A stretch of DNA of 64,000 bases from a virus. Its lineage: Duplodnaviria; Caudoviricetes. The number at the start of each line of letters is the position of its first letter. Positions within the stretch are counted from its first letter, which is position 1. The stretch lies in IMG/VR virus record IMGVR_UViG_3300031993_006627, positions 1 through 64,000 of that record; one strand, given 5' to 3'. Below, piece by piece: positions 8,478-58,416 of the stretch. Position numbers and translations under genes: made by a program. The notes under the pieces were generated by a model. The model was given only the letters and a program-made list of their open reading frames with translations. It was not told where the DNA came from and searched no databases.

Positions 8478-9226
8478 AGAAGGAACCGTCGAGGAACCGG
8501 ATCAACAAGGCTCTGGCGGAAGTACAAGGGCAGCTGTCGAAGTTCGTCGGTCATTATTTTGATGAGACGAAACTTCGGCAGTTTGCCGTAGTGCTCGTGC
8601 GGGCGATGCACAAGAGCAACGCACCGTTCAAGCAGAGAGCAAACGAGGCGCTTTATGCGACCTGTAAGCATCTACTTGGGCAGGCCCCGAGCCGGGCAGT
8701 TGTCAAAGGCAACATGCTTCGTATCATCGCCAACTGGCACTTCATCGAAAACGGTATGGAGATCCCTGTGTGGGATGGCTCTTCGTGCACATCTGATGCA
8801 GTATTCCTGGGAGTACGGCGTATCAATGTACCGGAGGGCGTGATGCCGAAGATGATCGTCAGAGTCAAGTTGAAGAGCGGATTGTGCGCCGGCGTAATCC
8901 GGTCGGTCGAACTGTCTGCCAACCGTATCGGACAGTTCCTCGACCGCGTGGCCGGCGTGAACCATTATCACTGTGCCTTGGAAGAAATTGCAGGTATGGA
9001 AGCGAAGCTGATGGTCGATTACAGCGGCAATCAGCTGAACATCTACGACTGGTCCTGTACAGAGGCGCAGAAGCACGTCAACCGTGAAATAACGGCGGCA
9101 CGAACTGATGCCGCAAAGTGTCCGAATGCGCAGCCATGCAACGTTTGCAAGAAAGACATCAAGCAGTGCCCACTTGCTGTATGGCTCCCCAAACCATGTA
9201 AAGAAACAGAGAAAAACAATGACTGA
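8474..9226 (+). CDS. Hypothetical protein with C-terminal Cys cluster
   Basis: ATGA overlap; C-terminal CPNAQPCNVC..CP. Confidence 0.75.
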   Translation: MKKEPSRNRINKALAEVQGQLSKFVGHYFDETKLRQFAVVLVRAMHKSNAPFKQRANEALYATCKHLLGQAPSRAVVKGNMLRIIANWHFIENGMEIPVWDGSSCTSDAVFLGVRRINVPEGVMPKMIVRVKLKSGLCAGVIRSVELSANRIGQFLDRVAGVNHYHCALEEIAGMEAKLMVDYSGNQLNIYDWSCTEAQKHVNREITAARTDAAKCPNAQPCNVCKKDIKQCPLAVWLPKPCKETEKNND

Positions 9227-10025
9227 ACAAGAACAACCGAAAGAACCAAGGACGAAGCTCCACATCTTCCGGGTCAGAACCCGTGGAGAAGCGGATTTCT
9301 TCGATCCCCAGACTGACATCAGGAAGCTCCTGCCGTATATCGGTCTCATGGTGATCGACGACATGAAGGTCGCCTACAAGGATGACCCGATGGCGCAGTA
9401 CAGCATCAGCTATCTGTGGAACTGTCTGAATGTGTTCCGTATCCGCATTAGTGAGGATCCGACACCGCTGGCGGAGCAGATGCTGAAGTTCGTGGAAGCG
9501 ATCAACCAGGTGCCGCAGGATATTCTGAGCCGGTTCACCACCAGCGTTTTCGTGATGCTGACCACGATCTATGCACTTTATCAGCGCCGCGATATTCAGA
9601 TCGACGGTCCTTCCCAGGCACAGATGCTGGCAACAGCACGTCTGGCGGATTTCATGTCCATACTTCCTCAGGAATGTGCGGAAAAGCTCCACAAGTGTGT
9701 GAAGGCGAACCCGGCGTTCCAGGAGAAATTCGTGTCCGTCGATCAGACAAGCAACGCGGAAGTCGCCAAGGATGGCAAGGTCGTGGATGTGTTTACCAAT
9801 CTTAAGGAACGTGCCAGACTGTTCTTGGCCGCTGATGGCGACCAAAGCTGGGAAGCATTGGCTGAAGCATGTGACCAATGTTTCCAGACGCTTCCTGAAG
9901 ATGCGCCGGTGCAGACGAAGGCTGCGCTGTGTCTTGCATATCCTGATTACAGATTCCCAACCCAGTGTGAATTCGATGAAACCGATCAGAGTGACACTAC
10001 ACGAGAAGCTACGCCACCTGCATGA
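9219..10025 (+). CDS. Hypothetical protein
   Basis: Coupled ORF with phage-like codons. Confidence 0.75.
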   Translation: MTEQEQPKEPRTKLHIFRVRTRGEADFFDPQTDIRKLLPYIGLMVIDDMKVAYKDDPMAQYSISYLWNCLNVFRIRISEDPTPLAEQMLKFVEAINQVPQDILSRFTTSVFVMLTTIYALYQRRDIQIDGPSQAQMLATARLADFMSILPQECAEKLHKCVKANPAFQEKFVSVDQTSNAEVAKDGKVVDVFTNLKERARLFLAADGDQSWEALAEACDQCFQTLPEDAPVQTKAALCLAYPDYRFPTQCEFDETDQSDTTREATPPA

Positions 10026-10734
10026 GGTCGGCGACATCGTTCTTTACAGGTGGTCCACCGGTCGTTTCCGCATTGCGAAGGATTACACCGTGCTGTCCTC
10101 GCTCCGTATGGAGGTGCTGACATGCACGAAAGATCATATCCTGTTCAGTAGCTGTGCGCCGTGTCTGTTCATCCCGAACGGCCGGCCGCAGGTGCGGTTC
10201 CAGGATCACGATATCCTCAGCATCAGCGATGGACCACGTAAGGGAATGAACATCACGTCTTCTATGCTTAAAGACGGCGAGATGGCCATTGAGGCACGGC
10301 ACTGCACACACCAGGAAGTGGATGAGTTCCATTGCGAGAAATGGCTGGAGAAAAAGGTCATGTCGATGGGACTTAGCCCAGTGTATCCGGTGTCCAGGAT
10401 CATCATGCCGGAGCTGTGCCGAATAAGCAAGAAGATCAACGTACTTAAACCACAGATCACCAATGAGTTAAAGCGCACACTCGGCTGTGCTATGGATGCT
10501 CCGGTTGAGGAGATCAACCAAAAGTTCCAGGCGAACCTGCAGTTGTTCGGGCACAAGTCGGATGACGGCTGGGTTGTCTCGAATGATCATATTGCTTCCG
10601 GCGGCTGTCTTGTAGCGGCCGTGAAGGGGCTTGCAGGCAGCTGTTCCATGGTGCACAAGATGCCGCTTACCATGTTCCAGATCGAGATCGCGAACAGGCA
10701 CTGGGAGATCAGAACGACAAAGGAACACAGATGA
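9976..10734 (+). CDS. Hypothetical protein
   Basis: ORF in operon; start uncertain. Confidence 0.65.
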   Translation: MKPIRVTLHEKLRHLHEVGDIVLYRWSTGRFRIAKDYTVLSSLRMEVLTCTKDHILFSSCAPCLFIPNGRPQVRFQDHDILSISDGPRKGMNITSSMLKDGEMAIEARHCTHQEVDEFHCEKWLEKKVMSMGLSPVYPVSRIIMPELCRISKKINVLKPQITNELKRTLGCAMDAPVEEINQKFQANLQLFGHKSDDGWVVSNDHIASGGCLVAAVKGLAGSCSMVHKMPLTMFQIEIANRHWEIRTTKEHR

Positions 10735-11357
10735 GCTGGACAGATACACTTGAACTGCTGAGTCTGGGAAAGTCCGGCGCCGTGCTGTTCTGTACAGCGA
10801 CTACCGGTCTTCACAGGACGGATAAACTGCTGGCAGTTGCCTATCAGCTGTACAGTGGAGATACCGTGGAGAAGACCGGCACGTTGTTTCTGGATGTGAC
10901 GGACGAGGAGCTCGCTCCAGGTCAGCAGTATCATCAGATTACCCCGGATATCATACGGGCCAATGCGATGAAGCCGGATGCCTTCAAGGAAGCGCTGATG
11001 GAGATCATGACGCAACGTGTGGCGTTCACTTACAACACAGCTTTCCAGTTGAAGGCTCTCATGGTGATGGGTGGCGGCATAATAGATGCACCCCCATGTG
11101 AGGTTTGTGAGTTGCCTCTGTGGGTGAAAGCAGGGGAATCCAAGTTGCACTTCGTGGTTGATCTCCCACTGAGTAAAGCAGAATCCCAGATGGCGAACCG
11201 CATTCCGATTCCCACGTGGAAGAAGATGCTGGAGTATCGTGGAATAGCCGCGAAGCCGCCTCCGGGAATGCTTCCAGTGGTCTATAATGCGGAGTGTCTT
11301 GGGAAGATGTATGAGGCGCTCATCGAGCAGCCACCAAACATCGACTTGGCTTTGTAA
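10731..11357 (+). CDS. DnaQ/DEDDh exonuclease-fold protein, probably inactive
   Basis: FCTATTGL (cf. FDxETTGL), YHQIT (cf. HGIT), TYNTAFQ (cf. HNxxFD): scaffold kept, acidic residues lost. Confidence 0.65.
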   Translation: MSWTDTLELLSLGKSGAVLFCTATTGLHRTDKLLAVAYQLYSGDTVEKTGTLFLDVTDEELAPGQQYHQITPDIIRANAMKPDAFKEALMEIMTQRVAFTYNTAFQLKALMVMGGGIIDAPPCEVCELPLWVKAGESKLHFVVDLPLSKAESQMANRIPIPTWKKMLEYRGIAAKPPPGMLPVVYNAECLGKMYEALIEQPPNIDLAL

Positions 11358-11862
11358 CGACCGGCAGAGGTGCTGTGATCGCAGACAGCATAAGGGAAGC
11401 ACGGTTCATCTGGCGGATGAATGGCTTCCCGTTTTCATCGACGGCAACGATCATGGAAGGGTCGTGCCACGATACAAGAGCGCAGCTGGTGTTTGCGTAC
11501 AGCAGCAAAATTGCATGGCCGTGGAGGCCGCATGGGTCCACGATTGCTGCCGGAATAACGTCTTTCGCGAGACGCCATCTTTCCGGATTCACGGCAAGCA
11601 GGCAGTTGGTCTTCGACTTCTTTGTTTTGCCCGTGATCTCATGCAGGAATGTCATACTGACACCTGCCAGGTAACGGAAGTCCCCGATGTCTTTCTGGGC
11701 TACTTTCGCCACGACAGGCTCTGTCTGAAGAGCCGCCTGTTTCACGACAGCAGTATCCGGGCTCACGGTGATGACGCTTTCAAAGTCGCCAACCGTGATA
11801 CCGGCAGTGATCGTGTTTTCGTAGAGAGAATAACAACTCAGCGATTCCAAAGGAGACCTCAA
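11320..11862 (-). other. Antisense ORF over the putative ncRNA (cryptic gene candidate)
   Basis: 180 open codons. Codon usage is phage-like only between ~11823 and ~11358. No credible 5' start or promoter space. Confidence 0.5.
11358..11848 (+). ncRNA. Putative structured RT-associated ncRNA
   Basis: About 10 consecutive stem-loops, e.g. 11394-11430, 11437-11473, 11502-11550, 11550-11586, 11589-11637, 11643-11668, 11763-11798, directly upstream of the RT RBS. Confidence 0.6.
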
Positions 11863-12839
11863 TGTTTAAGTTCGATGGTGTTCCACCAATCTCGTATCAG
11901 GAATACCATATTCCCAAAAAGAGTAAAGGCGTTCGAATCATCGAAGAGCCCAATGCTCAACTAAAAGCAGTACAGAAGAACATCTTACAATACCTGTATC
12001 AGTGTACCCGTGCCGGGATACTTCCGGTATCTCATCTGGCACACGGATTCATTCCATACAGGGGTTGCATGACAGCGGTGCCGAAGCATTCGCTGAGGTC
12101 GCCGGTGCTGATTGGAGCGGATATCCATGATTTCTTCTTCAATTTCCCACCGGAACCTGTAGCGGAGAATCTGTCATTTGCCACGGATGGTCCCAGGGTT
12201 AACTTCATCATGAAGTGTGCTTTGTGGAGGGGTAACTACCCGAAGGAGCATTTCCCGCAGGGCAGTCCCATCAGTCCGTATCTGACGAATGTAGGGATGT
12301 TCGACGTGGATCGTATGATTGCGTCGTACTGCAAGAAGAACGGCATCTTCTTCACGAGGTATGCCGATGATATGCTGTTCAGCATCATAGACGGTGCGGA
12401 GGATACTCCGGCTGTTCGGCGCATGATGCATGAAGATGAGCCTTTTGCCTCGTTGTTCCACGGCGTAGAGATGATCCTGCAGGATCATCTCGGTCTGGAG
12501 CTTTCGAAGGCGAAGTCACACGTTATGTGGCGGTATTCCACGTGTAAGACACAGGCTCTCGGCATAACGTTCCGCCAAGACAACAAAGGCTACAACGCCA
12601 ACAAACGAAAGAGAAGAAACACACGAGCCCAGCTGTATAACCTGTATCGCAAGGTTCAGGCACAGAATGGGCATTTCGAATATGATGACTGGAAAGAGTG
12701 GCAGAGCGTGAATGGCAGTATGAACTACTGCAATCTCGTTCGCTCTCTGAGCAAGTTCCCGGAAGTAGCGGGGATTGATCCGGTCTTCCAACTTTCCTAC
12801 TACAACGAAATCGAGAGGTGGGCAAATGCTTCCTTATGA
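11862..12839 (+). CDS. Retron-like reverse transcriptase (325 aa)
   Basis: KGVRIIEEP..LKAVQ, AHGF..TAVPKH (region X-like), DIHDFF, PQGSPISPYLTN, RYADD, ALG in place of VTG. RBS AAGGAG. No maturase or endonuclease domain. Confidence 0.92.
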   Translation: MFKFDGVPPISYQEYHIPKKSKGVRIIEEPNAQLKAVQKNILQYLYQCTRAGILPVSHLAHGFIPYRGCMTAVPKHSLRSPVLIGADIHDFFFNFPPEPVAENLSFATDGPRVNFIMKCALWRGNYPKEHFPQGSPISPYLTNVGMFDVDRMIASYCKKNGIFFTRYADDMLFSIIDGAEDTPAVRRMMHEDEPFASLFHGVEMILQDHLGLELSKAKSHVMWRYSTCKTQALGITFRQDNKGYNANKRKRRNTRAQLYNLYRKVQAQNGHFEYDDWKEWQSVNGSMNYCNLVRSLSKFPEVAGIDPVFQLSYYNEIERWANASL

Positions 12840-14850
12840 AGATTTATGCTTGAAGGCGCGGCATGCTGCCGAAGCATACTATGAGAAGGACGATCCCATC
12901 ATGACCGATCAGGAGTACGATGCCCTTATACTCCAGATCGAAGCCATGGAAAAGGCTGATCCGTCTCTACGGCATCCGAACAGCCCAACAAGGAAGGTCG
13001 GAGGGCGTGCGGTCGACGGATTCAAGAAGGTCAAGCACCCGAAGAAAATCCTGTCGCTGAAGAACGCCTACAACGATGCAGATCTGGATGCGTTCTTCAA
13101 GACGGTGACGGGTATCCAGCCGGATACCAAATTTGTCGTGGAGCCGAAGTATGACGGTCTCACGCTGGTCTGCAAGTATGTGGACGGCAAGTTCGTCCAG
13201 GCAGTCACGCGGGGTGACGGCAAGGTCGGCGAGGACGTCACAGAAAACGCCAAGCACATCATCGGGCTTCCCATGCAGTTATCGAACATGGATATGTTGC
13301 AGATCGACTCGCATATTATCTGGGCGCGTGGCGAGGTTCTTATGTTCAAGGCGGACTTTGAGGAGCTGAATAAGCGTCTTGAAGTCAACGGTCAGCCGAA
13401 GATGGCGAATGAACGCAATGCGGCGGCCGGCGCACTTCGTCAAAAGGATCCGGAAGTGACACGTAGCCGTAAACTCCACATTGTGTTCTACGACATGTGG
13501 GAGGACAACGGCGAGTACTACACGGAGGAGTGGGGCATGCTCCAGACTATGCGTGTTCTTGGGTTTGAGAGTGCCTATGATGATACCGAGACGGTTCCGA
13601 TGACAGCTTCGCCTGATGATCCGAATCAACACGATGTCCGGTGGGCAATCAAGGATCTGTATGAGCAGCGTGAGAAGCTCCCGTACAAGATCGACGGTGC
13701 CGTAGTGAAGCTGTGCAACAAGGATCTTCAGGAAGACATGGGCAATGCCGAGAAGTATCCCAAGTGGGCAATCGCGTGGAAGTACGAGCAGCCGCAGTAC
13801 GATACCAAGCTGCTCGGTGTTCAGTGGGAAGTCGGCCGCACCGGTCGGCTCACGCCTGTCGCATGGTTTGAGCCGGTGCTGATCGACGGCACCAGTGTGC
13901 AGTTTGCCACGCTGAACAACCCGGATTACATCGCCGGTCTCGGCGGTCTGCGGGAAGGTGATATCGTGTCCGTCTATAAGGCGGCCGAGATCATTCCGCA
14001 GGTGGACCGGGTCGTGGAACCGAATGAGGACGGCCAGGAATTCACTACACCGGAGAAATGTCCGGACTGCAACAGCAAGCTGGAACGCGATGGCGCCAAC
14101 CTCAAGTGCCCGAACATGTTCTGCCTGGGCAAAATGGCTGCGCAGATGACGTATTTCTGTTCCAAGCCGTGCATGGACATCCAGGGACTCGGTCAGAGCA
14201 TCATCAACGAACTCGTCGAGCGCAACATTGCGTGGTCGATTCCGGATCTCTACCGGCTCAAGGTTGAAGATCTGATGAAGCTCCCGCGCACCACTGAACT
14301 GGTTGCCACGAAGCTCCAAAAGGCGATCCAGGCATCCAAGCAGATGCCGTATGATCGGGTGCTCTGTGCACTTGGTTACAGGCATGTCGGCACAGTTGCG
14401 TCCAGAAGGCTTACGGAGAAGTTCCCGTCGTATGCACAGCTCCTGGTATGTTCCGTGGAGCAGCTCGCTGCGGTTCCTGGAATCGGCAAAGTGAAGGCCA
14501 AGGAGATCTGGGAGGATATCAACAACGAGGAGAACAAGAACATTGTCCGCCAGCTTGCAGGGTTCGGGCTCAAGCTCGAATGTGAGAAACCGGCGACGCA
14601 GCTGGACAATACGCTGCAGGACAAAGGTTTCTGTTTCACGGGCAAGCTGTCCCATCCAAGAGACTGGTACAGATCGTTCGTCAGCAGCCACGGCGGTATG
14701 TTCAAGGAAGCCGTGACCGGCAGCCTGGATTACCTGGTGGCCGGCGAAGGCGGAGGTTCCAAGCGCAGCAAGGCGAAGGCGCTCGGCATTGCAATCATCA
14801 CAGAAGAACAACTCATGGAGATGGCAAATGGTGGAACCAGACCCTCTTGA
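12826..14850 (+). CDS. ligA: NAD-dependent DNA ligase
   Basis: EPKYDG, TRGDG..GEDVT, RGEV, RNAAAG, GRTG, C4 zinc finger, HhH, BRCT. Confidence 0.97.
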   Translation: MLPYEDLCLKARHAAEAYYEKDDPIMTDQEYDALILQIEAMEKADPSLRHPNSPTRKVGGRAVDGFKKVKHPKKILSLKNAYNDADLDAFFKTVTGIQPDTKFVVEPKYDGLTLVCKYVDGKFVQAVTRGDGKVGEDVTENAKHIIGLPMQLSNMDMLQIDSHIIWARGEVLMFKADFEELNKRLEVNGQPKMANERNAAAGALRQKDPEVTRSRKLHIVFYDMWEDNGEYYTEEWGMLQTMRVLGFESAYDDTETVPMTASPDDPNQHDVRWAIKDLYEQREKLPYKIDGAVVKLCNKDLQEDMGNAEKYPKWAIAWKYEQPQYDTKLLGVQWEVGRTGRLTPVAWFEPVLIDGTSVQFATLNNPDYIAGLGGLREGDIVSVYKAAEIIPQVDRVVEPNEDGQEFTTPEKCPDCNSKLERDGANLKCPNMFCLGKMAAQMTYFCSKPCMDIQGLGQSIINELVERNIAWSIPDLYRLKVEDLMKLPRTTELVATKLQKAIQASKQMPYDRVLCALGYRHVGTVASRRLTEKFPSYAQLLVCSVEQLAAVPGIGKVKAKEIWEDINNEENKNIVRQLAGFGLKLECEKPATQLDNTLQDKGFCFTGKLSHPRDWYRSFVSSHGGMFKEAVTGSLDYLVAGEGGGSKRSKAKALGIAIITEEQLMEMANGGTRPS

Positions 14851-15790
14851 TCTTGACACGCTGTCGCCCGTGAATGACGCCATCATCGTTGACAGAACCG
14901 AGGACATGTTCCTGCAGCATGGAGGCTGCGCAACCAGGCTTGTTTTTGAGGAAGTCGAAGAGATGTCTGTGTCGGAGTTCCTGGATGAATTGCCGCTGCA
15001 TCCGCACCTGCCGGACAAGGAACTGGACTTCATACGCAGTCCATCGACGCAGACGGCTATGCTGCTCAGAGGCGACAAAGTCATCCGTTACAAAGGCTGC
15101 CAGTTCCAGGACGTCCTTGTAGACGGCATGATCAAGTTACTGACGGAGAAGGAAGCGACGATGACGTATACACCGATGTCCCAGTATCCTCTGGTGCATG
15201 CCTGCATTCAGGGCGGGGAGCGGTGGATCACGGTGCAGATTCCCAAGCGTATCGTGCATATCTTCGGGGATGAATACCTCGGTGATATTGATGATGATGT
15301 CACGATGCCTCCGTTGTGGTTCTGCTGCAAGATGACGTCGACGTTCACAGTCACCAGTGGCTGGGTCGCGGTGGTCGGTCGATTGGATCCGGACCCGACA
15401 AAGTGTGAACTCCGTAAGTTGTGCTTCCCGAATACATACGATGATGCGCATATTTGCTTCGGTTCGACCAGAACAGATGCGGTCAAGTATGACAAGATGA
15501 CGGAAGGTCTTGCGGTGGCCAGTACGATTGACCGGTTCTTCAACAGCACCAGGAACAATCACTGTCTGCATTATCATGCGGATTTCCTCCAGACTTGTCG
15601 TAGCATCTATAACGACATGCCGAAGGAGAAGCAGTATGAGAAAGCAATCTCCAAAGTCGCCAATGACTGTACCACAGCCAACTTTCTGCGGTATCTGCGG
15701 ATTCTGCATGAACCGGATGGCTGGATGCGCATTGCGCTTCCGAGATTGTCAAGCAAGGCAGTTTCCGACAACTTCCTGCATGGAGCCTGA
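14828..15790 (+). CDS. Prokaryotic E2-like (Prok-E2 family D-like) protein
   Basis: PPLWF..FPNTYDDAHICFG motif; neighbours JAB and ThiF genes. Confidence 0.72.
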   Translation: MVEPDPLDLDTLSPVNDAIIVDRTEDMFLQHGGCATRLVFEEVEEMSVSEFLDELPLHPHLPDKELDFIRSPSTQTAMLLRGDKVIRYKGCQFQDVLVDGMIKLLTEKEATMTYTPMSQYPLVHACIQGGERWITVQIPKRIVHIFGDEYLGDIDDDVTMPPLWFCCKMTSTFTVTSGWVAVVGRLDPDPTKCELRKLCFPNTYDDAHICFGSTRTDAVKYDKMTEGLAVASTIDRFFNSTRNNHCLHYHADFLQTCRSIYNDMPKEKQYEKAISKVANDCTTANFLRYLRILHEPDGWMRIALPRLSSKAVSDNFLHGA

Positions 15791-16068
15791 TGATGCTTCA
15801 CGTTTATGAAAGAAAACCGAAAGTCCGGCGTAAGCCGACCAAGATGCCGACACATGTCATCCAGGTGGCTGCTCCGCCGTTCATGCTGCAACCATCCAAG
15901 GATTATCTCCTGTTGCGTGGCGCGTTCTTTGCCTGCCTTGAGCAGACGAAGAAGATGCGTCTGGACAGGGATATTGACAAGCTGATGGAGGAAAAGGTGG
16001 ATACGACTGGACTTCACATTGTAAGAGAGGAGGACCTTGATGGTACCTCAGTTCAAGATTTGTCCTGA
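15790..16068 (+). CDS. Small hypothetical protein in the Ubl module
   Basis: TGATG coupling. Confidence 0.65.
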   Translation: MMLHVYERKPKVRRKPTKMPTHVIQVAAPPFMLQPSKDYLLLRGAFFACLEQTKKMRLDRDIDKLMEEKVDTTGLHIVREEDLDGTSVQDLS

Positions 16069-17515
16069 TGGTGTCTATATCAGATATGACGGCCCCATGA
16101 TCTACGGTTGGGAGAAGATTGAAAAGGCTGATGACCTTATCGGCTATGCAGGCGACCAGCTCTCGACCGAGTCCCCGAAGACGGGTCTTACTTGGCACGG
16201 TGCTAAAATCCCGATGGCTGTTATCGGTCCGGTACTTGGTACTATTCGGGATTTCCCGGACATGGAGACCGGCTACACCCTGTATTACAACAGGCCGGCC
16301 GGGAAATGGACAATCGGCTGCCCTCGTCAGTTCGGTTATCAGAGCGCTGTGTTCTTCGAGAACGACGGTGAGATGCCAGACGGCTACCAGGGCTATTACC
16401 AGATCGGTACGATTCACACACACCCGAATATGGGTGCGTTCTGGTCTGACATGGATCTGAGCACCAATGCAAAGCATTTTGGCCTGCACATGGTGTTCGG
16501 GCTCCGGGAAGGAAAAGTCAAGGAATCGAAGATTACGATTTTCACGCCGCGAGCGCACTATGATGTGCCGTGGCACGATATCTTCGAGGAGGATGTTAAT
16601 TTCCTGGCCGATTATCTACCGGATAATACGGCCTGGAAGGAGCGCATCCTTGAGCAGTTCAAGCCCGACTTCAGGTTGGTTGTGGATGGTAAGACATACG
16701 GACCACATGTGCAGAACAGGGAAGACATGCCAAAACTCTATTCCGAGAAGGAGTTGCAGTTCATGCATGATTCTATTCAGATGGCCGCGAGAGAAGTTGT
16801 GGCTAAGAAGAAGAAGGTAAAGCCCAAGAGTAAATTCCAGAAGCTACTGGTGGAGAAGTATGGCTATGACGCCAATGACTTGGCAGACTGGATCGGAGAT
16901 CAGACGGATTCCGGTTTTGAAGATGCGGAAGAGGTTTGCATCTACGACCAGAACGATAGTGGCTACTGGGGAGATGGCATCATGGCCAGCAACGATATGC
17001 GTTCCTTCCTGGATGACAGCGACACAGCGTTCGGCAGCGAATTTAAGCCGGATATGACGGTTAACGAGAAGATACTGGTTACTGTCCTGTATGAAAGGGT
17101 TACGAGCTGCAAGCTGGTCGAGAAAGCACATGCTGCAGAGGATCTGGATGAATATGATGAAGACCTGAAGGTCATCTTCGAGTACATCCCGGAGGAAACC
17201 CTTCGTATTCTTATCGAGGATTTCCGAGATCAGTTAGATTTCGCATGTGATGCGGGAAATGACGCCTTGTTTGGTGGTCGCTTGCTGACCCCGACGGCTT
17301 TCAGATGGGCTGAGGCAGCTATGCGCAATCCAGGCGTAGACCACACAGGGAGAGACCTTGCAGAGGCGCTCGACAGGTGTGCCGATATGAATGGCTGCTT
17401 GTCGTGGCATGCAATGGCACTGCTACTGGTAGCACTCGAAACGACGCCCATGACATGTATTCATCTCTGGGAGCTTTACCAGAGGATGAAGAAGGAAGGA
17501 CGGCTGGAATGCTGA
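16040..17515 (+). CDS. JAB/JAMM metallopeptidase with long acidic C-terminal extension
   Basis: E(TG)..IHTHPNMGAFWSDMD = HxH-x7-S-x2-D. Confidence 0.88.
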   Translation: MVPQFKICPDGVYIRYDGPMIYGWEKIEKADDLIGYAGDQLSTESPKTGLTWHGAKIPMAVIGPVLGTIRDFPDMETGYTLYYNRPAGKWTIGCPRQFGYQSAVFFENDGEMPDGYQGYYQIGTIHTHPNMGAFWSDMDLSTNAKHFGLHMVFGLREGKVKESKITIFTPRAHYDVPWHDIFEEDVNFLADYLPDNTAWKERILEQFKPDFRLVVDGKTYGPHVQNREDMPKLYSEKELQFMHDSIQMAAREVVAKKKKVKPKSKFQKLLVEKYGYDANDLADWIGDQTDSGFEDAEEVCIYDQNDSGYWGDGIMASNDMRSFLDDSDTAFGSEFKPDMTVNEKILVTVLYERVTSCKLVEKAHAAEDLDEYDEDLKVIFEYIPEETLRILIEDFRDQLDFACDAGNDALFGGRLLTPTAFRWAEAAMRNPGVDHTGRDLAEALDRCADMNGCLSWHAMALLLVALETTPMTCIHLWELYQRMKKEGRLEC

Positions 17516-18408
17516 GTCTGTACGTAATCGGCTGTGGCGGCATTGGCGGCCACTTGCTGAATCATCTGCTGGAGTCTCTGGCAAGCCTTGACCTGGATGT
17601 CATGGCAAAGAATGTCAAAGAGGAGAGGTTCACGGATACCCTTGAGAATTTCGGAAAGGAGGTCGTACCATCCATGATCGACAGGATTGTACTGGTGGAC
17701 GGTGACGAATATTCCCCACGGAATGCTCTCCGGCAGGGACATGCCGCAGGAACAAAACTGGATGTTTGTATGAGTCAGCTGGAACACAGCGCGATTCGCC
17801 GGACATTCTTCAGGCTTACCGACCTTGTAGGCTACCCGATGTACATCAATCCGGGCAATATGGCGAAGATCATACCCAGGAACCCGAAACGGAATCTGGC
17901 CAACGATGGTGGCTGCTTGGCGGATTATCCGAACACGAGGACCAACATGATCAGATCCACATGGCCCGGACCGAGGGATATGCCGGTGATCTTTATCTGT
18001 GTCGACAACATGAAGACAAGATATGAGATCAGCCGGTATGCTGAATCCTTCGATAACATTCTCGTCATCAACGGCGGGAACGAGAAAACGACCGGTCACG
18101 TAACCGTGTACGAAAGACGTGACGGCGTAGCGCTCGATCCCAATCTGCCAGACGTTTACCCCGATGTGACGGCAGATGCTGACCTGAGACCTGACGAGGT
18201 GGACACATGCACGCACATTGCTCCGAAACATGACCAGGTTTCGGATACCAATGAAATGATTGCGCTCTACATGCGTCGGTTCTTCAACCGCTGGCTCATC
18301 CGGGGGCTCAGCAGTTTTGGACCCAAGGGGAAAGACAGGTACAATGACGAACTGATAGATCTGGAGAGCATGACGAACATGCCGGTCTATCACCCACCTA
18401 GAACCTGA
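17509..18408 (+). CDS. ThiF/E1-like activating enzyme
   Basis: VIGCGGIG, LVDGD..RNALRQ, ICVDN..TR, INGGN; candidate catalytic Cys in DTCT. Confidence 0.9.
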   Translation: MLSLYVIGCGGIGGHLLNHLLESLASLDLDVMAKNVKEERFTDTLENFGKEVVPSMIDRIVLVDGDEYSPRNALRQGHAAGTKLDVCMSQLEHSAIRRTFFRLTDLVGYPMYINPGNMAKIIPRNPKRNLANDGGCLADYPNTRTNMIRSTWPGPRDMPVIFICVDNMKTRYEISRYAESFDNILVINGGNEKTTGHVTVYERRDGVALDPNLPDVYPDVTADADLRPDEVDTCTHIAPKHDQVSDTNEMIALYMRRFFNRWLIRGLSSFGPKGKDRYNDELIDLESMTNMPVYHPPRT

Positions 18409-18423
18409 CAAAGGAAACGAAAC

Positions 18424-18789
18424 ATGAGTTTCAATATTACGACAAGCGTGTACTGCCAGCAGGACCGCAACATGAATCTGGATGAAGGGACCACCTGCGA
18501 GACCCTTCGCAACATCCTCTATGCAGCAGGACTTGATACCCACGCTTCCAACGTGCGCGTCTTCCGTGACGGCAAGATCCACATCGGCCGTATGGATGGT
18601 TTCGTGCTCAAGGAAGGCGATCACGTCGAATTCCGCAACAGCTATGACCTGGTGGTCGAGCATGATGTGACCATGAAGAGGGAGCCGAAGAAGACTCCCA
18701 ATCATGACCAGGCTCCGACCGGCTATCCCACCAGGGAACAGATCACTAAGATTTGCAACGCTATTTTCGACCACTTCTGCATCGGCTAA
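18424..18789 (+). CDS. Ubiquitin-like (beta-grasp) domain protein with C-terminal extension
   Basis: VRVFRDG..LKEGDHVEF signature; follows E1. Confidence 0.6.
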   Translation: MSFNITTSVYCQQDRNMNLDEGTTCETLRNILYAAGLDTHASNVRVFRDGKIHIGRMDGFVLKEGDHVEFRNSYDLVVEHDVTMKREPKKTPNHDQAPTGYPTREQITKICNAIFDHFCIG

Positions 18790-18811
18790 TTAACACAAAG
18801 GACAATATACT

Positions 18812-19561
18812 ATGAAAACTATCACGATTTCCGCCCGTAATGCTTCCCGTGAATTCGAGGGCAATGACCTTGACACTGTCGTTTCTGTTCTCTCCCATGC
18901 GGCTACCCGTTCCTTCTTCGGATTCGACCCCGCAGAATCCGCAGATGCCATCAATGAGGCGCTCGACACGCTTATCCCCAACATCGTTACCATCGTCAGC
19001 GGTGGCAACGCAGTCGAACTGAAGAAGATCCCGGAATCCTTCCGCAACGCCATGCTGAATGCAGTTCTGGAAGATGGCGCCGAGATTGAGATCGATTACT
19101 ATGCAGCTGAGGACAACGACGCCAATGAAGTCGATAACGACGGTGGCTTTGATCCGACTGCGAATGGCAATCCGGAGAACTGGCATGTGAACGGCATGGA
19201 TACCGGAATTCCTCTGAAGGACGCTCAGGAAGGCGACTTCACAAAAGCCGGTGACGAGCAGTCGGAGCCCCCGCAGGGTACGGCCGGTGAAAAGCGCCAC
19301 AGCCTGGTCACGGTGAGCACCAATGGCGGCATGGTCACGACCCCGATTGAGATCGAGGATGGCGTGACCACTGTGCGCACTGTCATCTACAACAAAGTCG
19401 TTCTCAGCCGTGCCGGCATGGACGAAACTGCCATGAGCAACTGTATGGTAAATCTGAACGGCGACATCATCAATCCCAACAACATCAACATCCGCAAGCT
19501 GCATGCGGGTGATACTCTCGATATCACCCCGCGCTTCGCATCGAAACTCGGCGCAGAATGA
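18812..19561 (+). CDS. Ubiquitin-like protein, probably two beta-grasp domains, ends KLGAE
   Basis: LEDGAEIEI and VNLNG..LHAGDTLDI motifs joined by an acidic linker. Confidence 0.68.
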   Translation: MKTITISARNASREFEGNDLDTVVSVLSHAATRSFFGFDPAESADAINEALDTLIPNIVTIVSGGNAVELKKIPESFRNAMLNAVLEDGAEIEIDYYAAEDNDANEVDNDGGFDPTANGNPENWHVNGMDTGIPLKDAQEGDFTKAGDEQSEPPQGTAGEKRHSLVTVSTNGGMVTTPIEIEDGVTTVRTVIYNKVVLSRAGMDETAMSNCMVNLNGDIINPNNINIRKLHAGDTLDITPRFASKLGAE

Positions 19562-20064
19562 ATTCTCCTCGGCATTGGAAGATCGTGATACCGGTGAAAC
19601 CTAAGGCAGTGCAAGCTGTCAGAGGCGGTCGCCGGGGCTTCTATGCCGACAAGAAGGTAATTGCTTGGAAGGATTCGATCAGACCTTTCATCAGAAAAGC
19701 CTGCAAGGGTTCTCCAAGCAAGCTGCCGATTCGTGCAATGTCCTTGCGCTACATCTTCAAGCTCCCGCAGACGGCTCCTCCGCACATTGTCAAGTTTGTT
19801 GAGCAGGGTGGCTACGTACCGTACCTGATGCAGATTGACATTACGGACAACCTGTCGAAGGGCGTGATTGATGTGTGCAAGGGCATTGTTTTCGAGGATG
19901 ACAGCCAGATCTGGGATATGAGTGAAGTCAAGAAGCTGTACGGCACCAGTGACCGTATAGAGCTTGAGTTCGAGGAAACCCCTGATGTGGTGATGTTGCA
20001 TGCGAAAGGGGAGAAATGTGAGTCAAAAGACCAACTTTCTGTCGACGCAGAGCTTGCTTTTTGA
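19558..20064 (+). CDS. rusA: RusA-like Holliday junction resolvase
   Basis: DITDNLSKGVID..FEDDSQI. Confidence 0.85.
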   Translation: MNSPRHWKIVIPVKPKAVQAVRGGRRGFYADKKVIAWKDSIRPFIRKACKGSPSKLPIRAMSLRYIFKLPQTAPPHIVKFVEQGGYVPYLMQIDITDNLSKGVIDVCKGIVFEDDSQIWDMSEVKKLYGTSDRIELEFEETPDVVMLHAKGEKCESKDQLSVDAELAF

Positions 20065-20374
20065 GCGAGCTGCTTTGCACGGGTTGGTGGACACGCTGTG
20101 GCAGGATGGAGTCCTGAACAGGAAAGGTGTCTACGCTCTGATGTCCGAGACGCTGCAGAAGGACGAGGTCCATATCTCCGATATGACAACGGAGGAGATG
20201 GAGAAGATCGTCCAGAGGATGCAGCCGATGGTCGCAAAGCATCTGAACCGGATATGTCACTGCTGCAAGCACGGATACAAGGGAGCACTTGGTCTGTATA
20301 TATGCGAGTGTACCGGCAAGTTCTCGCTCACGAACAAGGAGCCTTGCAATGCTTTTGCCGGCGATGAACTTTGA
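20018..20374 (+). CDS. Hypothetical protein (DUF3268-like)
   Basis: RAALH..DTLWQ..R..VY..HI pattern plus a Cys cluster. Confidence 0.55.
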   Translation: MSQKTNFLSTQSLLFERAALHGLVDTLWQDGVLNRKGVYALMSETLQKDEVHISDMTTEEMEKIVQRMQPMVAKHLNRICHCCKHGYKGALGLYICECTGKFSLTNKEPCNAFAGDEL

Positions 20375-20759
20375 CCAAGTCAACTGCCGGATGGATTTCT
20401 TCTTCTGTCTTTCGTTTGAGGACATCACCGAGGAATCCTTGCGGGCTTATCTGCCGATTCTCAAACTTTCCACTCCAGGTGGAATATCTTTGAAACTGTA
20501 TGGTAAGACTTTGCGTATCCGACTGACAGTCAAGAACATAGAAGCGTGCTTCCCCTTGACGGGAATGGCGACGCACACTAGTTACGAGCACAATGTAATC
20601 TATCGCAGCGTGAGGAACGCCGAGAATTACGTCGATACGATTTATCGGACGATTCTGGAGTTGGATCACGTTGCTACAACAATGAAAGGAGATCTCAGTG
20701 GCTTTATCCAACCGAGACAAGAACCTGATCGAGGCGTTCTGGCAGTCGTGCCAGTTTGA
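20364..20759 (+). CDS. Hypothetical protein
   Basis: ORF in operon. Confidence 0.6.
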   Translation: MNFDQVNCRMDFFFCLSFEDITEESLRAYLPILKLSTPGGISLKLYGKTLRIRLTVKNIEACFPLTGMATHTSYEHNVIYRSVRNAENYVDTIYRTILELDHVATTMKGDLSGFIQPRQEPDRGVLAVVPV

Positions 20760-22083
20760 TTCGGTGCCGGAAACTGTCCAGTATGTGCGTGGTGAGGATG
20801 TGTATTACACCCACAAGTACGCATTTCTGATTAAGCCGGCAGCAGACGCAGACAAGGCGACGATGAAACAGGGTGAATTGTACCCGTACATCAAGTCGAA
20901 ACCTCTGAAGACGATCAAGGATATCACCCGGTGCGATCCCAGCGTGTGTCTGTCGGGTGATGGCATCGAGATACCGGATATTCGTCAGCTGAAGGATACG
21001 GAGTTCCTTGTCACGAAGGCGGGAACTGGCGGCAGCCAGGCGTCTTTCCTGTATTTTCTGAGAGACAAGCCGTCCCATAAGGAAGTGACAGGAGGTGTGA
21101 ACCTGGAAGGCTCGTCCCTGTCTATGCTTCCGATGCGCCCCTATACGTTCAAAGAGGAGACAATGGGAGGGAACTACGATGGCTGCACATTCGAGCTCCA
21201 CGTGTTCTTCCCGTTGAATGCTCCTATTGTCGTTATACGGGGCGATGTCGTTCGTCTCTATTGCATGACCTGCACGGACTTCAAGGACATCCTGTATAAG
21301 CCTGTGCTGGTGAACGGCAGTTATTTCAAACTGGATGGCTGGAGACACTCCCAGACACCAGGATCTTCAACATATCAATACTTCAAGAAACTGAAAGGCA
21401 AAGAAACCATGAATCTGCCCAAACTTGGTTCCCCCATCAAAGCCGGTGCCAAACCTACCGCTCCTGCACAGACCGTTACTCCGCCTGCCGACGCAACCCC
21501 GCTCGAACAGGCTGCCGCCGAGACACCGGTCGCGCCTCCTGTCCGTCCGCTGCCGAAGCGCAGGCTTGCTCCGACGCCTGCACCGGCGCCCAAGGTTGTT
21601 CCTGCTCCGGAACCGGCCGGAACGCCGGAAGACAGCGTGACCGTGGAAGAGCTCCAGCAGCGCCAGGCTGAGGAGCCCCAGGTCGAGACCTTCGAGCAGC
21701 CCATCAACGCGATGGAGCAGCCGATGGAGGATCCTGCGGAGCCCGTCACGGTCGCGGAAGAACAGACTGACATTCCGAAGGACCGGGTGACTCAGCCGGA
21801 TCGCGAGATGACCCAGGCCGAATATGCGGCACTCAAGAAGCGTACCCGCAAGCCGGCTCCGGTCGTTCCTGTGGGATTCGATTTCGGCCCAGTGCTTGAA
21901 TACACCGGGAGTGCCCTGCCGGAAGATCTCACGGCTGACCAGATCGAGGCGGAGATTCGCTCCCTGCGGGATCTCATCATCAACGCCGGTCGCCGTATGT
22001 GCAATCTCACGTTTGCTATGCGCAAGACCGGTAGCGCTTCCGAAGCGAAGCTCAAGGCTCTGGCGGATCTCCTCGGAAAATGA
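20698..22083 (+). CDS. Hypothetical protein with Pro/Ala/Glu-rich linker
   Basis: RBS AAAGGAG; possible internal start at ~21409. Confidence 0.75.
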   Translation: MALSNRDKNLIEAFWQSCQFDSVPETVQYVRGEDVYYTHKYAFLIKPAADADKATMKQGELYPYIKSKPLKTIKDITRCDPSVCLSGDGIEIPDIRQLKDTEFLVTKAGTGGSQASFLYFLRDKPSHKEVTGGVNLEGSSLSMLPMRPYTFKEETMGGNYDGCTFELHVFFPLNAPIVVIRGDVVRLYCMTCTDFKDILYKPVLVNGSYFKLDGWRHSQTPGSSTYQYFKKLKGKETMNLPKLGSPIKAGAKPTAPAQTVTPPADATPLEQAAAETPVAPPVRPLPKRRLAPTPAPAPKVVPAPEPAGTPEDSVTVEELQQRQAEEPQVETFEQPINAMEQPMEDPAEPVTVAEEQTDIPKDRVTQPDREMTQAEYAALKKRTRKPAPVVPVGFDFGPVLEYTGSALPEDLTADQIEAEIRSLRDLIINAGRRMCNLTFAMRKTGSASEAKLKALADLLGK

Positions 22084-23600
22084 GAATCCAACGGCAATGT
22101 CGCGCTCTTGCAGACGAATTGACCGACAGGGTACGCACCCAGTTGCCGGGTGAGGTCGACAATTACTGCAAGGACCGTGAGAGCAAAAAGCCGAACAAGA
22201 AGCCGGACAGCGAACTGTATGTCGATGAGAAGGATAACACGGTTCTCATCGGAGGTACGCTGTCCGGCGACCTTTCCAACACCAGCATGTGTCTGGTTGG
22301 TGAGGGCATGACCGTAGAGATCGGGGAAGGCAGCATCGTGATGGGCTGCGTCTTCACCAGACTGGATTTGTCCAGTATCTACGACGCATCCGTGAAGGAA
22401 TTACATGAGCAGCATCATGTCAAGATCGGCAGGAACTGTATGCTGATCGGTTGTCTGTTCCGTGATGATTGCGTCATAGGGGACAATGCGACCATGGCAT
22501 CTTCCGCTGTCAGCCAGGCAACGATTGGTGAAGATGCAAGGCTGTTCATGTCATCTGTGCTTCTGCGGTATGGACGGGTTGGAGACCGCTTTACAGCCGT
22601 CCAAACGCTGTTCCATTCGGACAAGTGTGAAGTGGGCGCAGACGCCTTTATGATGAGCGGAAAGTACGGCATAATATCATGGGAACCCGCGATTAAAGAG
22701 TTGTACCAGGAAATCTATAGTCGCTGTGTGTTCCTGGCAGGCAGTAATGCAGTGCTAAACACGGTGAACGACTGTTTCCAGCATGGGGTGGAATACTACG
22801 ACAATCAGAAAGAGATGCAGAGACTTGCGGAAGAGGATCCGGATGACTTGTCTTACAAGTATTCGGTGGCTCCCACGGTATACCGCAAGCAGTATTTGTA
22901 CCTCGACAAGGTTGCCCGAATGCTGAAGCTCACGAACGATATCATCTGCTTCTACGCGAAAGATATCACGATGGACAAGGCCAAGTTCCCGCCTATGTAC
23001 GTTGTGCTGCGCGACCGCATCACATGCAGTAATGCAGAACGTGAGTGGGACAACTACGATGAACGCAAGTTCACGTTCCGGGAGGTATTTGCCTATGAGC
23101 CACGTATCAGAATCGGCAACAATGTACAGTTCTTCAGTCCATTTGCCCTTTGCGTGACCCGTATCGAGCAGGATACTTATGCAAGCTGGAGACGCCAGAG
23201 GGTGAAACCCTGCGGCTTCGACAGCTTTACCTGGAACAAGTTCAACGGTTATGAACACGACTTGGTGATTGGTGACGACTGTGTTATCACAAGTTGCGCC
23301 GACTGGCTTGAGTTCAAGCCGATCCCGCACTATGAGCGTGCGGGCAAATTCACCATGAAGGATGGCGTTACGTTCTATGTCCCGACAGAAAGGGACGGCA
23401 GCGCTTCGTTCATTGATGGACTGCGGACAGTGGATATCCTCGCTGATTCAGGAAGATCACATAGACTGTTCACCGGAGTGGAATACATCTTCGAGGACAA
23501 CACCAGAATCTTCATGCGGCAGGCTATCAACTGGCAGGCCAAGTCGAACAGTTACGTGTGGCGCATTAAGGTAAAGCCAGGAGACATGGCAGTCATTTAA
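22080..23600 (+). CDS. Protein with hexapeptide (left-handed beta-helix)-like repeats
   Basis: VEIGEGSIV, VKIGRNCML, CVIGDNA, IRIGNNV, LVIGDDCVI. Confidence 0.7.
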   Translation: MRIQRQCRALADELTDRVRTQLPGEVDNYCKDRESKKPNKKPDSELYVDEKDNTVLIGGTLSGDLSNTSMCLVGEGMTVEIGEGSIVMGCVFTRLDLSSIYDASVKELHEQHHVKIGRNCMLIGCLFRDDCVIGDNATMASSAVSQATIGEDARLFMSSVLLRYGRVGDRFTAVQTLFHSDKCEVGADAFMMSGKYGIISWEPAIKELYQEIYSRCVFLAGSNAVLNTVNDCFQHGVEYYDNQKEMQRLAEEDPDDLSYKYSVAPTVYRKQYLYLDKVARMLKLTNDIICFYAKDITMDKAKFPPMYVVLRDRITCSNAEREWDNYDERKFTFREVFAYEPRIRIGNNVQFFSPFALCVTRIEQDTYASWRRQRVKPCGFDSFTWNKFNGYEHDLVIGDDCVITSCADWLEFKPIPHYERAGKFTMKDGVTFYVPTERDGSASFIDGLRTVDILADSGRSHRLFTGVEYIFEDNTRIFMRQAINWQAKSNSYVWRIKVKPGDMAVI

Positions 23601-23610
23601 GGAGAAAACA

Positions 23611-24132
23611 ATGTCTTTAACAAAAGCAGCAGTCGACATGCTGGGCGCGAAGCTCGCTGACGACAATGTTGACGGTCCGATAACGCCGACCGGGATGACC
23701 AAGGGGCCGAGAGGCACCGTGATCGTCAATCCGTCAACATCCAGTCCGCGAACTGCGAAGACTGGTCCCTTGGTCGATCCCCAGGGACAGATGATCCAGC
23801 AGCAGACAGAAACCGCGCCTCCTCCGCCGGCGAAGAAAGGCAGGAAGCGCGTGCTGAAACAGGAGCCGCCCAAGCAGACGCTTGTGAAGGCTACTGTGCA
23901 TGTGAACGGCATGGATATTACGACACAGTATGTGCACCTGAATATCGGTGCAGGCATTCTGGTGTTGTGGCTGAATGAGATGTCGTTCGTACCGCCGCCG
24001 GCCATGAAAGGCGCTGATGGTAACATCATAGGAAAGGTCCAGTTCGCCGGCATCGAAGGCGAATGGGCAAATCTCGGCCAGGCATTCACGGACAGAGACG
24101 GCACGCGGTGTGTCGTGCTCTTCAAAACGTAA
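23611..24132 (+). CDS. Hypothetical protein
   Basis: RBS AAGGAG. Confidence 0.75.
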   Translation: MSLTKAAVDMLGAKLADDNVDGPITPTGMTKGPRGTVIVNPSTSSPRTAKTGPLVDPQGQMIQQQTETAPPPPAKKGRKRVLKQEPPKQTLVKATVHVNGMDITTQYVHLNIGAGILVLWLNEMSFVPPPAMKGADGNIIGKVQFAGIEGEWANLGQAFTDRDGTRCVVLFKT

Positions 24133-57108: not shown

Positions 57109-58416
57109 ATGCCAGACTTCGCTCCAGGAATCCCAGACAAGCTCAATAAGGGCAGGCTCATGGATCTGCCGACCGACGTGTTGCTCACGATGGTACGGCA
57201 GCAGCATGACGCCCGGAAGGCCGGCCGGCACACGGATCTGCGCATCGGCAATGAGTCTGGCCTCTTCAGTTGGGCTGTGCCGAAGGATCTTCCCACAGAA
57301 CCCGGCCAGTTCCGTCTGGCGATTCCTACGAGCCTGCACCGATATTCCTACAAGGACTTCGAGGGCGACATCCCGGAGGGCAAATACGGCGCCGGCCATG
57401 TGAGCAAGCAGGAAGAATCCCCTGTGGTTCTCCTGAAGAACACGTCCAGCTATATCGAGTTTACCAGGGGCACCAGCAAGGATTCCCCGGTATACAAGAT
57501 GAAGCGCACCAGCGGTGGCAACTGGATCATCGGTATCAAGGAGCCCCAGGAGCCGGAGTCCGTGGCCGATTACCAGCGTGAGCACTTCAAGTCGGTTCCC
57601 ATTGAGAGCGTCCAGAAGATGATTGATAGCGGCGCGACCATTGCCCCCAAGATCGACGGCTCCTCTGTGTTGGCATATCTGGACAAGCACGGCATCAAGG
57701 TCTATGGCACCCGACCGGACAAGTCGGGGCACAAGCCTGACTACAGCGCACACATCGGCGGTCTTTCTCAGGTGCAGGTGCCGGAGGATCTCGTGGGCAT
57801 GATGCTGCGCGGAGAACTCTACGGTGTGCGTAATGGGCAGGTGATCCCACCTCAGGAACTCTCCGGGTTTCTCAACAGTACCATCCAGAACGCCATTCAG
57901 AAGCGCCAGCGTGGTCTCCGACTTATGGTCGCGGCTCTGGCCGTGAATCGTGGCAAGGATGACTATGGAGCGCCTGTGGGCGACATCGTGCGCCGGCTCC
58001 ACAGTCCTTCTTTTACAGCATTGCAGCCGGTCGGCGGGGAGAAAGCCCGCAGATTGCTCCGGCAGATACTGGCTGGCCGGCATCCGCTCACCCAGGAGGG
58101 CTTAGTGATCCACCAGAAAGACAAGCGGCCGCTGAAGGCGAAGCTCCGTGAGGACTATGATGTGGTAATCCGGGACATCTTCCCGGCGGATACCAAGTCC
58201 GAGCCACGGGCCGGCGGATTCACCTATGCACTCCCTGATCGGCCGGACAAATTGGTCGGTAACGTGGGTACCGGGTTCTCCCATGAACTGCTGCGGGACA
58301 TGCTGCAGCACCCGGAGAAATACGTTGGCCGGCTGGCCCGCATCCATGCTCAGTCTCAATATCCGGACACCGGCGCTTACAGAGCGCCGAGTTTTATCGC
58401 AATGAGGGAAGACTAA
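57109..58416 (+). CDS. LigD-type 3'-phosphoesterase fused to an ATP-dependent DNA ligase
   Basis: PE domain: QHDA..HTDLR..SWAVPK..RLA..H..Y.DFEG.IP..YGAG. Ligase: KIDG, RGEL, EGLV, KAK, VGTGFS. Confidence 0.88.
   Translation: MPDFAPGIPDKLNKGRLMDLPTDVLLTMVRQQHDARKAGRHTDLRIGNESGLFSWAVPKDLPTEPGQFRLAIPTSLHRYSYKDFEGDIPEGKYGAGHVSKQEESPVVLLKNTSSYIEFTRGTSKDSPVYKMKRTSGGNWIIGIKEPQEPESVADYQREHFKSVPIESVQKMIDSGATIAPKIDGSSVLAYLDKHGIKVYGTRPDKSGHKPDYSAHIGGLSQVQVPEDLVGMMLRGELYGVRNGQVIPPQELSGFLNSTIQNAIQKRQRGLRLMVAALAVNRGKDDYGAPVGDIVRRLHSPSFTALQPVGGEKARRLLRQILAGRHPLTQEGLVIHQKDKRPLKAKLREDYDVVIRDIFPADTKSEPRAGGFTYALPDRPDKLVGNVGTGFSHELLRDMLQHPEKYVGRLARIHAQSQYPDTGAYRAPSFIAMRED

Follow-up and report, generated by a model that had tools for sequence, protein, structure and literature searches.

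What does a large tailed phage do with a set of genes that resemble the enzymes and modifiers of ubiquitin conjugation? The question is raised by a viral DNA (Duplodnaviria; Caudoviricetes) of 64,000 nucleotides, referred to here as the window, which comprises the first 64 kb of the IMG/VR virus record IMGVR_UViG_3300031993_006627 (164,346 bp, estimated completeness 93%). At 14828-19561, between ligA and rusA, the window contains a block of six + strand genes. An earlier note on this DNA, made from the sequence alone, had recognized there an E2 of the E2-D type, a JAMM peptidase, a ThiF-type E1 and two genes for ubiquitin-like (Ubl) proteins of the beta-grasp fold. All these parts had been correctly identified, and the proposed five-gene module is present in full, but the block also includes a sixth, conserved small gene (15790-16068). 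Our analysis suggests, with a probability that we place at about 0.7, that the block is a complete and catalytically intact Ubl conjugation cassette, inherited as a part of the genome backbone by a clade of large phages. The catalytic residues of all three enzymes are invariant across relatives down to ~20-35% identity. The genes of the block and its two immediate neighbors are as follows (lengths in amino acids, aa):

12829-14850, + strand: LigA, NAD-dependent DNA ligase; upstream neighbor, whose 3' end overlaps the start of the E2 gene
14828-15790, + strand: E2-like conjugating enzyme, 320 aa; Prok-E2_D core at approximately residues 128-250
15790-16068, + strand: small protein, 92 aa; no family match, always located between E2 and JAB
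16037-17515, + strand: JAMM/JAB metallopeptidase, 492 aa; conserved N-terminal part (approximately residues 1-200) with the catalytic residues
17509-18408, + strand: ThiF-type E1, 299 aa; single adenylation domain
18424-18789, + strand: predicted accessory beta-grasp protein, 121 aa; fold formed by residues 1-72
18812-19561, + strand: putative di-beta-grasp modifier precursor, 249 aa; beta-grasp 1-100, linker 103-160, beta-grasp 163-246
19558-20064, + strand: RusA Holliday-junction resolvase; downstream neighbor, whose start overlaps the modifier stop

Analysis of the E2 clade reveals that 14 of its 18 members individually match the Pfam family Prok-E2_D (PF14460) with E<=0.01, the best of them with 5.8e-8, and that the same family is carried by 27 of the 30 nearest clusters in the ESM Atlas, the nearest clusters being 68-79% viral. 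In the alignment of these 18 sequences, which extends down to 20% identity, the invariant positions include Pro201, Asn202, Cys210 and Gly212. The active-site motif has the form F/L-P-N, i.e. it is devoid of the HPN histidine, and the clade profile aligns it to the segment HPNVYADGSIC of human UBE2B. The core is preceded by a clade-specific N-terminal extension of ~120 aa. A search of 1.84 billion representative proteins with the E2 profile returned 453 clusters, 73 of which (E<=1e-30) represent the long form (~310 aa), while those beyond them comprise proteins of ~215-240 aa that match the core only.

In the JAB peptidase, Glu77, His127, His129, Ser137 and Asp140 are invariant among nine sequences of 28-35% identity, and the window protein thereby possesses the Glu...His-x-His-x7-Ser-x2-Asp pattern that defines JAMM/MPN+ enzymes. 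The JAB profile matches deubiquitinases, namely AMSH/STAMBP (8e-4), AMSH-LP and Rpn11. The C-terminal part of ~290 aa is variable and acidic.

The E1 scores above the cut-off of the ThiF family PF00899 (30.9 bits vs. 28.1). Its invariant positions comprise the GxGGxG loop, the DGD motif, N72, R75-Q76, K83, D166-N167 and Cys234, the latter located in the RPDE..C loop, and all of them, Cys234 included, persist once distant phage and bacterial relatives are added to the alignment. A wider profile matches MoeB (8.4e-13; its best match among solved structures), the SUMO E1 subunit UBA2, UBA5, Uba4 and ThiF, and in these alignments the adenylation motifs coincide. The top match of the profile built from the single clade is the group of PDB entries 9egb-d, for which we could trace no paper. 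Homologs of this E1 in a large protein database form 98 clusters, which derive from contigs of up to 187 kb.

The remaining parts of a conjugation pathway are the modifiers, and here the two beta-grasp genes have to be considered separately. In the AlphaFold2 model of the 249-aa protein, calculated from a 19-sequence alignment, residues 1-100 and 163-246 are confidently predicted (pLDDT ~80-85) and are connected by a long, strongly acidic linker (residues 103-160), which is disordered in the model and varies in length among the relatives. The best Foldseek matches that cover both domains are linear di-ubiquitin, FAT10 and ISG15, and the C-terminal domain also matches MoaD with 25% identity. 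Gly247 is invariant in all 19 sequences. In the window protein it is followed by Ala-Glu, in most relatives by 0-5 unconserved residues and in one called open reading frame (ORF) by ~18, and in three relatives (L006, P0117 and P0118) the protein ends exactly at the glycine. Since the locus L006 has retained an intact JAB gene although its modifier is already trimmed, JAB probably has a deconjugating role beside the trimming one. In the 121-aa protein, residues 1-72 form a beta-grasp domain whose best structural matches are MoaD (TM 0.71) and ubiquitin, with a probability of 1.0 but E-values of only ~1e-3. Thus fold prediction and Foldseek agree with the earlier note in that both candidates are beta-grasp proteins, but its count of two Ubl genes holds only for the longer one (18812-19561), which has the conserved C-terminal glycine; the shorter one (18424-18789) has no conserved glycine past the fold in any relative, and its C-terminal part is variable. 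For lack of such a glycine, the 121-aa protein does not qualify as a second modifier available for conjugation and is regarded here as an accessory protein with the beta-grasp fold. Paralogy of the two proteins is not established by hhalign, which yields a weak match limited to the N-terminal beta-grasp domain (probability 18%).

Some relatives of the modifier exhibit a more elaborate architecture. The protein encoded at L013:5936-6568 consists of three head-to-tail beta-grasp repeats, each ending in ..SG.KG, with the junctions RKG/A and RKG/S (the slash marks the boundary), and by its sequence it is a polyubiquitin-like precursor. In the modifier homologs at L008:4725-5840 and L010:5146-6486, the conjugatable domain is present as an additional, internal copy with DG/A or KG/A at its end, and a 607-aa ORF at L009:10178-12001 continues beyond ..GDKG/S into more domains. 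Junctions of the KG/next-repeat type are what a JAB processing enzyme would be expected to cut.

A scan of IMG/VR with the E1 profile identified 18 loci. In ten of them (L002-L011; E1 identity 35-57%), several on contigs of 175-192 kb, the E2-JAB-E1 core is located between a reverse transcriptase (RT) and RusA, and in six of these (L002-L007) the full order RT-(LigA)-E2-small-JAB-E1-beta-grasp-modifier-RusA is conserved. The small ORF retains its position between E2 and JAB in all relatives, while its sequence is barely conserved. The cassette proteins have diverged approximately as much as RT, LigA and RusA, which argues for vertical inheritance together with the phage backbone. When the recombinase was used to sample the clade independently of the cassette and thus to ask whether all members have it, only five contigs were obtained: four had already been identified as carriers, and the last one, a fragment of 31.5 kb, breaks off ahead of the site where the cassette would be expected.

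The segment upstream of the E2 gene shows some variation of its own. LigA is located between RT and E2 in the window, L002, L003, L004 and L006 and is missing from this position in L005 and L007-L011, where RT abuts E2 directly; it thus represents a presence/absence polymorphism within an otherwise fixed gene order. The retron-like RT, together with a head-to-head partner gene (11320-12839 in the window), is found directly upstream of the cassette in all close relatives, and among the remaining, distant loci an RT is present nearby only in L013, ~4.5 kb downstream of E1.

These eight distant loci reside on other large viral contigs. According to hidden Markov models of the window clade, JAB adjoins E1 in all eight, E2 is found just upstream in three, and a fourth has two E2-like ORFs ~7 kb downstream. 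The order in such distant large-phage versions would be Ubl-E2-small-JAB-E1, in some cases with polyubiquitin-like precursors. Each of the eight has a nearby ORF ending in ..G.KG plus 0-5 residues; the beta-grasp fold is confirmed for only one of these ORFs, that of L013, which has Pfam matches to ThiS and TGS.

Cultured phages are reached only from a more distant E1, that of L013. Neither megablast with the region 12000-21000 nor tblastn with the window E1 and the JAB N-terminal domain returned anything from a collection of 50,697 phage records. One of these distant relatives is Salmonella phage Arash (OQ632216.1, 176281-179301; locus L030), with E2 (gp248c), JAB (gp247c) and E1 (gp246c), which match the window-clade profiles with E-values of 2e-6, 6e-17 and 5e-15, respectively; related E1 genes are also present in the Vibrio phages D69, D181 and D148 and in a Bacillus phage. 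The Arash proteins are annotated only as hypothetical or "structural protein" (the latter in the case of gp246c and gp248c), and gp246 and gp248 were detected among 116 proteins in the proteome of a virion preparation (PMC10585845). These two proteins are therefore made, but their packaging in the virion is doubtful, since the same list includes RNA polymerase and ribonucleotide reductase. A single scan of 185,579 bacterial and archaeal species representatives yielded only two very distant JAB-E1 pairs, both in metagenome-assembled genomes, and on this basis the clade looks restricted to phages.

The genomic setting is compatible with a function during replication. The six genes overlap or are separated by gaps of <= ~20 bases: the E2 ATG (14828) lies within the last codons of ligA, whose stop is at 14850, the E2 stop overlaps the first codon of the small ORF, the E1 start is located 7 bases ahead of the JAB stop, and the rusA start (19558) sits on the stop of the modifier gene. 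We found no excess of promoter-like or terminator-like sites within the six-gene block. The + strand holds nearly all genes, and the recognizable neighbors are a DNA polymerase fragment, a UvsX-like recombinase, the retron-like RT (11862-12839), LigA and RusA. The description of the region as a replication operon is based on these genes; most of the other neighbors have no family match, and none of the six block proteins has a counterpart in PHROGs. As the block is a part of a single tightly coupled gene string, the arrangement suggests co-expression with the ligase, RT, recombinase and RusA.

Other genes of the window deserve mention. Directly after RusA, a 124-aa protein (20000-20374), conserved in the relatives and with 62% identity in L002, has a weak match to the DUF3268 zinc-finger domain (E=1.7e-5, under the cut-off) and is a possible further partner of the cassette. 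Further downstream, hexapeptide repeats of the left-handed beta-helix type (Hexapep, 2.9e-8) are found in a 506-aa protein (22080-23600). A 435-aa protein (57109-58416) matches, with its C-terminal part, a PHROG family of ATP-dependent DNA ligases, and hence the phage may hold a second ligase besides LigA.

Taking the conserved residues together with the known chemistry of E1, E2 and JAMM enzymes, the cassette would most likely operate as follows. JAB would cleave the Ala-Glu cap off Gly247 of the two-domain modifier; E1 would then adenylate the exposed Gly247 carboxylate and load the modifier on Cys234 as a thioester, from which it would be handed to Cys210 of E2. With Asn202 in the role of the "HPN" asparagine, and without an E3, E2 would place the modifier on a lysine of one or more target proteins; the part of E2 most likely to recognize these is its N-terminal domain, which is specific to the clade. 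JAB would also be able to reverse the conjugation, and the glycine-less 121-aa beta-grasp protein and the small ORF may serve as accessory subunits. The position of the cassette among genes of replication and repair, to which it is coupled, suggests that it acts during the replication phase, either on host proteins (takeover or counter-defense) or on phage replication proteins. The earlier note proposed that host proteins or those of the phage itself are tagged, in the service of replisome control or counter-defense, which is a reasonable possibility as far as the genes allow a judgment. In a more novel reading, to which we give slightly less than even odds, the cassette would be offensive equipment that tags particular host defense or replication factors, or the phage's own replisome, with a virus-encoded di-ubiquitin-like modifier during the replication phase.

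Several points weigh against the interpretation of the block as an intact conjugation cassette. The window E2 taken alone matches Prok-E2_D with E=2e-3 and 18.4 bits, and the window JAB alone scores 22.2 bits, while the Pfam gathering cut-off is 25 in both cases. Cys234 is a candidate for the catalytic cysteine of E1 because it is invariant and follows the adenylation core, the order of the steps and the thioester chemistry are derived from residues and precedents, and the timing is read from gene order alone.

The same genes could also be explained in other ways. Phages often carry defense genes, and the cassette might be one of these, which, like Bil, would tag structural proteins of co-infecting competitor phages (superinfection exclusion) instead of assisting the infection program of its own phage. 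We consider such a role unlikely: none of the six proteins matches a PADLOC defense model (PADLOC-DB 2.0.0, which may miss some Bil types), save for a chance-level match to E1-E2 (E=0.03), and the cassette occupies one fixed backbone site and diverges in step with its core neighbors, unlike the patchy cargo typical of defense. Nor does interference with the host explain the data well. Host conjugation systems, namely Bil and the cyclic oligonucleotide-based antiphage signaling system (CBASS), are reversible by JAB-type peptidases, BilC and Cap3 (PMC11601603), and the phages retain the JAB gene even where the Ubl needs no trimming, so that JAB might strip host Bil or CBASS conjugates, or Ubl, E1 and E2 might act as decoys that soak up the host machinery. 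However, the cysteines of E1 and E2 and the Ubl glycine are invariant over deep divergence, for which there would be no need if the cassette were purely a decoy or a peptidase, and it shows no sequence similarity to parts of Bil or CBASS; the chances of this scenario are accordingly small.

Still less probable is a sulfur-carrier or adenylation pathway of the ThiS/MoaD type, in which an acyl-adenylate or thiocarboxylate of the Ubl would be used to modify a cofactor, tRNA or DNA base and no protein would be conjugated. It would account for the resemblance of the C-terminal beta-grasp domain to MoaD and ThiS, its nearest relatives in sequence (the ThiS match, seen in the NCBIfam scan of the modifier and the small proteins, is weak and at chance level), and for a short E1 composed of a single ThiF/MoeB-like domain. 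Yet the E2, with its invariant Cys and Asn, and the JAMM peptidase are conserved parts of the block, and the two-domain modifier with its long linker is unlike sulfur carriers. Moreover, the statement of the earlier note that no gene for a cGAS/DncV-like nucleotidyltransferase (CD-NTase), ParB or sulfur transfer is adjacent extends to the whole 164-kb record, in which we found no CD-NTase (SMODS), no ParB (PF02195; a control search was positive in 11 of 14 control genomes), no MoaE and no rhodanese. The absence of ParB bears also on the last alternative, a plasmid-type partition or maintenance cassette that would aid the segregation of an episomal prophage. This is how PRTRC (ParB-Related, ThiF-Related Cassette; NCBIfam TIGR03734-03742), known from plasmids, integrative and conjugative elements and some prophages, is often annotated, e.g. 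in a Burkholderia prophage, where it is called a ParB/ThiF "partitioning cassette" (PMC13366799), and the record is indeed labeled as a provirus by IMG/VR. It contains no tyrosine integrase, the cassette lies among the replication and repair genes of a large phage, and its enzymes are those of protein conjugation, which makes partition a highly improbable function.

Bacterial Ubl conjugation, as represented by CBASS Cap2, Bil and Bub, has so far been studied as anti-phage defense. A complete and conserved E1-E2-peptidase-modifier set in a phage backbone suggests that bacterial viruses exploit the same chemistry for their own ends, and the two-domain capped modifier and the polyubiquitin-like precursors widen the known architectural range of prokaryotic Ubls. 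If tagging by the phage is indeed offensive, viruses of prokaryotes would have their own parallel to the way in which eukaryotic viruses manipulate ubiquitin, and the PRTRC/6d family, a 20-year-old orphan, would obtain its first function. The probable equivalent of PRTRC is operon type 6d, predicted by Iyer, Burroughs & Aravind 2006 (PMC1779556); in the literature searched we found no experimental test or other functional study of this family and no discussion of a phage-encoded conjugation cascade. Because distant versions occur in cultured phages (Salmonella phage Arash, Vibrio phages), the question of the tagging target is approachable by experiment. PRTRC cassettes have already been annotated in prophages (PMC13366799). 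The present case contributes the anatomy of this member, the observation that the E1 cysteine stays invariant throughout the superfamily, the poly-Ubl precursors, a measure of how large the long-E2 clade is and the negative results for the whole record.

Comparison with the known conjugation systems, for which PRTRC and Bil/Bub proved to be the right set, as the earlier note had suggested, allows us to place the cassette. Bub (the former "6E"/DUF6527 operons; PMC11601596) shares with it the logic of E1, E2, Ubl and peptidase as well as Ubls with multiple beta-grasp domains. However, Bub employs oxyester (serine) intermediates, fusions (Ubl-E2, JAB-E1 or E2-E1) and a DUF6527 serine protease (PMC11601596), whereas the window has separate genes, the residue invariant in E1 and E2 is Cys and not Ser, and the Pfam scans gave no DUF6527 match; the Bub pathway is thereby ruled out. 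Type II CBASS (Cap2/Cap3) differs in that E1 and E2 are fused, and it has a CD-NTase substrate gene that the window lacks. Bil (BilABCD) resembles the window in having separate genes for Ubl, E2, JAB and E1, a Ubl with two beta-grasp domains (Type I), no need for an E3, and a terminal Gly followed by a short unconserved tail, which in BilA is removed by the JAB peptidase of the system (PMC10557695). It differs from the window in its multidomain BilD, as opposed to an E1 of 299 aa with a single adenylation domain, and in gene order; besides, the window cassette is phage-encoded and syntenic with phage core genes. Among phages, Arash shares the order E2-JAB-E1, and the Vibrio phages, for which the likeness is known from an E1 match only, probably have such a block as well; the genomes are of similar size, ~180-187 kb. 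The Arash and Vibrio versions are very distant in sequence and occupy another genomic position, and they are known only from E2-JAB-E1 (Arash) or from E1.

The closest similarity is to PRTRC, with which the window shares an E2 of the Prok-E2_D/PRTRC_B kind with Cys and without the HPN histidine, a JAB with an additional N-terminal region, a short E1 of the ThiF type, a Ubl that ends in Gly and a small extra protein; the small ORF, for which scans of Pfam, NCBIfam and PHROGs and of the ESM Atlas returned no match, might correspond to the small helical protein encoded in type-6d operons. Like these operons, the window encodes a beta-grasp protein with a conserved C-terminal glycine, though one with two domains. 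The type 6d E2 is described as lacking the HPN histidine but having a conserved Cys and, downstream, a His that is absolutely conserved, and the type 6d JAB as having an N-terminal alpha+beta domain with conserved Arg and Trp (PMC1779556). In the phage E2 clade, a downstream His (within an N-N-H motif) is present in the closer relatives only, and the N-terminal region of JAB has G24, W25, W53 and G55 but no Arg among the invariant residues of the nine sequences.

The window proteins remain under the cut-offs of all PRTRC models that they match (14.3 bits vs. 131.45 for PRTRC_B, 16.3 vs. 144.75 for the PRTRC ThiF model TIGR03736 and 12.2 vs. 101.8 for PRTRC_A), and the three small proteins have no NCBIfam match with E<=0.1 to PRTRC C (the Ubl), D, E or F, or to anything else save chance-level ThiS and RpoL. 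The links are instead transitive: in the distant phage loci found with the E1 profile, JAB and E1 match PRTRC_A (5e-17) and PRTRC_ThiF (3e-19), below the cut-offs, and nine of ten sampled short E2 relatives match only PRTRC_B, all under its cut-off. PRTRC protein B has also been reported, in a 2026 preprint, as a hotspot of a diversity-generating retroelement (DGR) in a Phocaeicola prophage, and we considered whether the RT next to the cassette could be a DGR aimed at the E2. This was rejected, since the RT has a QGSPISP motif of the kind seen in retron/group II enzymes, its best models are retron RTs, and there is no template/variable repeat pair within 9000-24000.

Other features set the window apart from PRTRC, namely the two-domain modifier with an acidic linker and a capped glycine, the extra glycine-less beta-grasp gene, the extensions of ~120 aa at the N-terminus of E2 and ~290 aa at the C-terminus of JAB, the lack of ParB and the fixed place in a block of phage replication and repair genes. 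Membership in PRTRC is argued against by the scores of all components, far below the model cut-offs, by the absence of ParB, CD-NTase, MoaE and rhodanese and by the lack of a Bil or CBASS match. To judge from these sequence relationships, we place the window cassette on a divergent branch, carried by phages, of the PRTRC/"type 6d" kind, related to that family without being a member of it.

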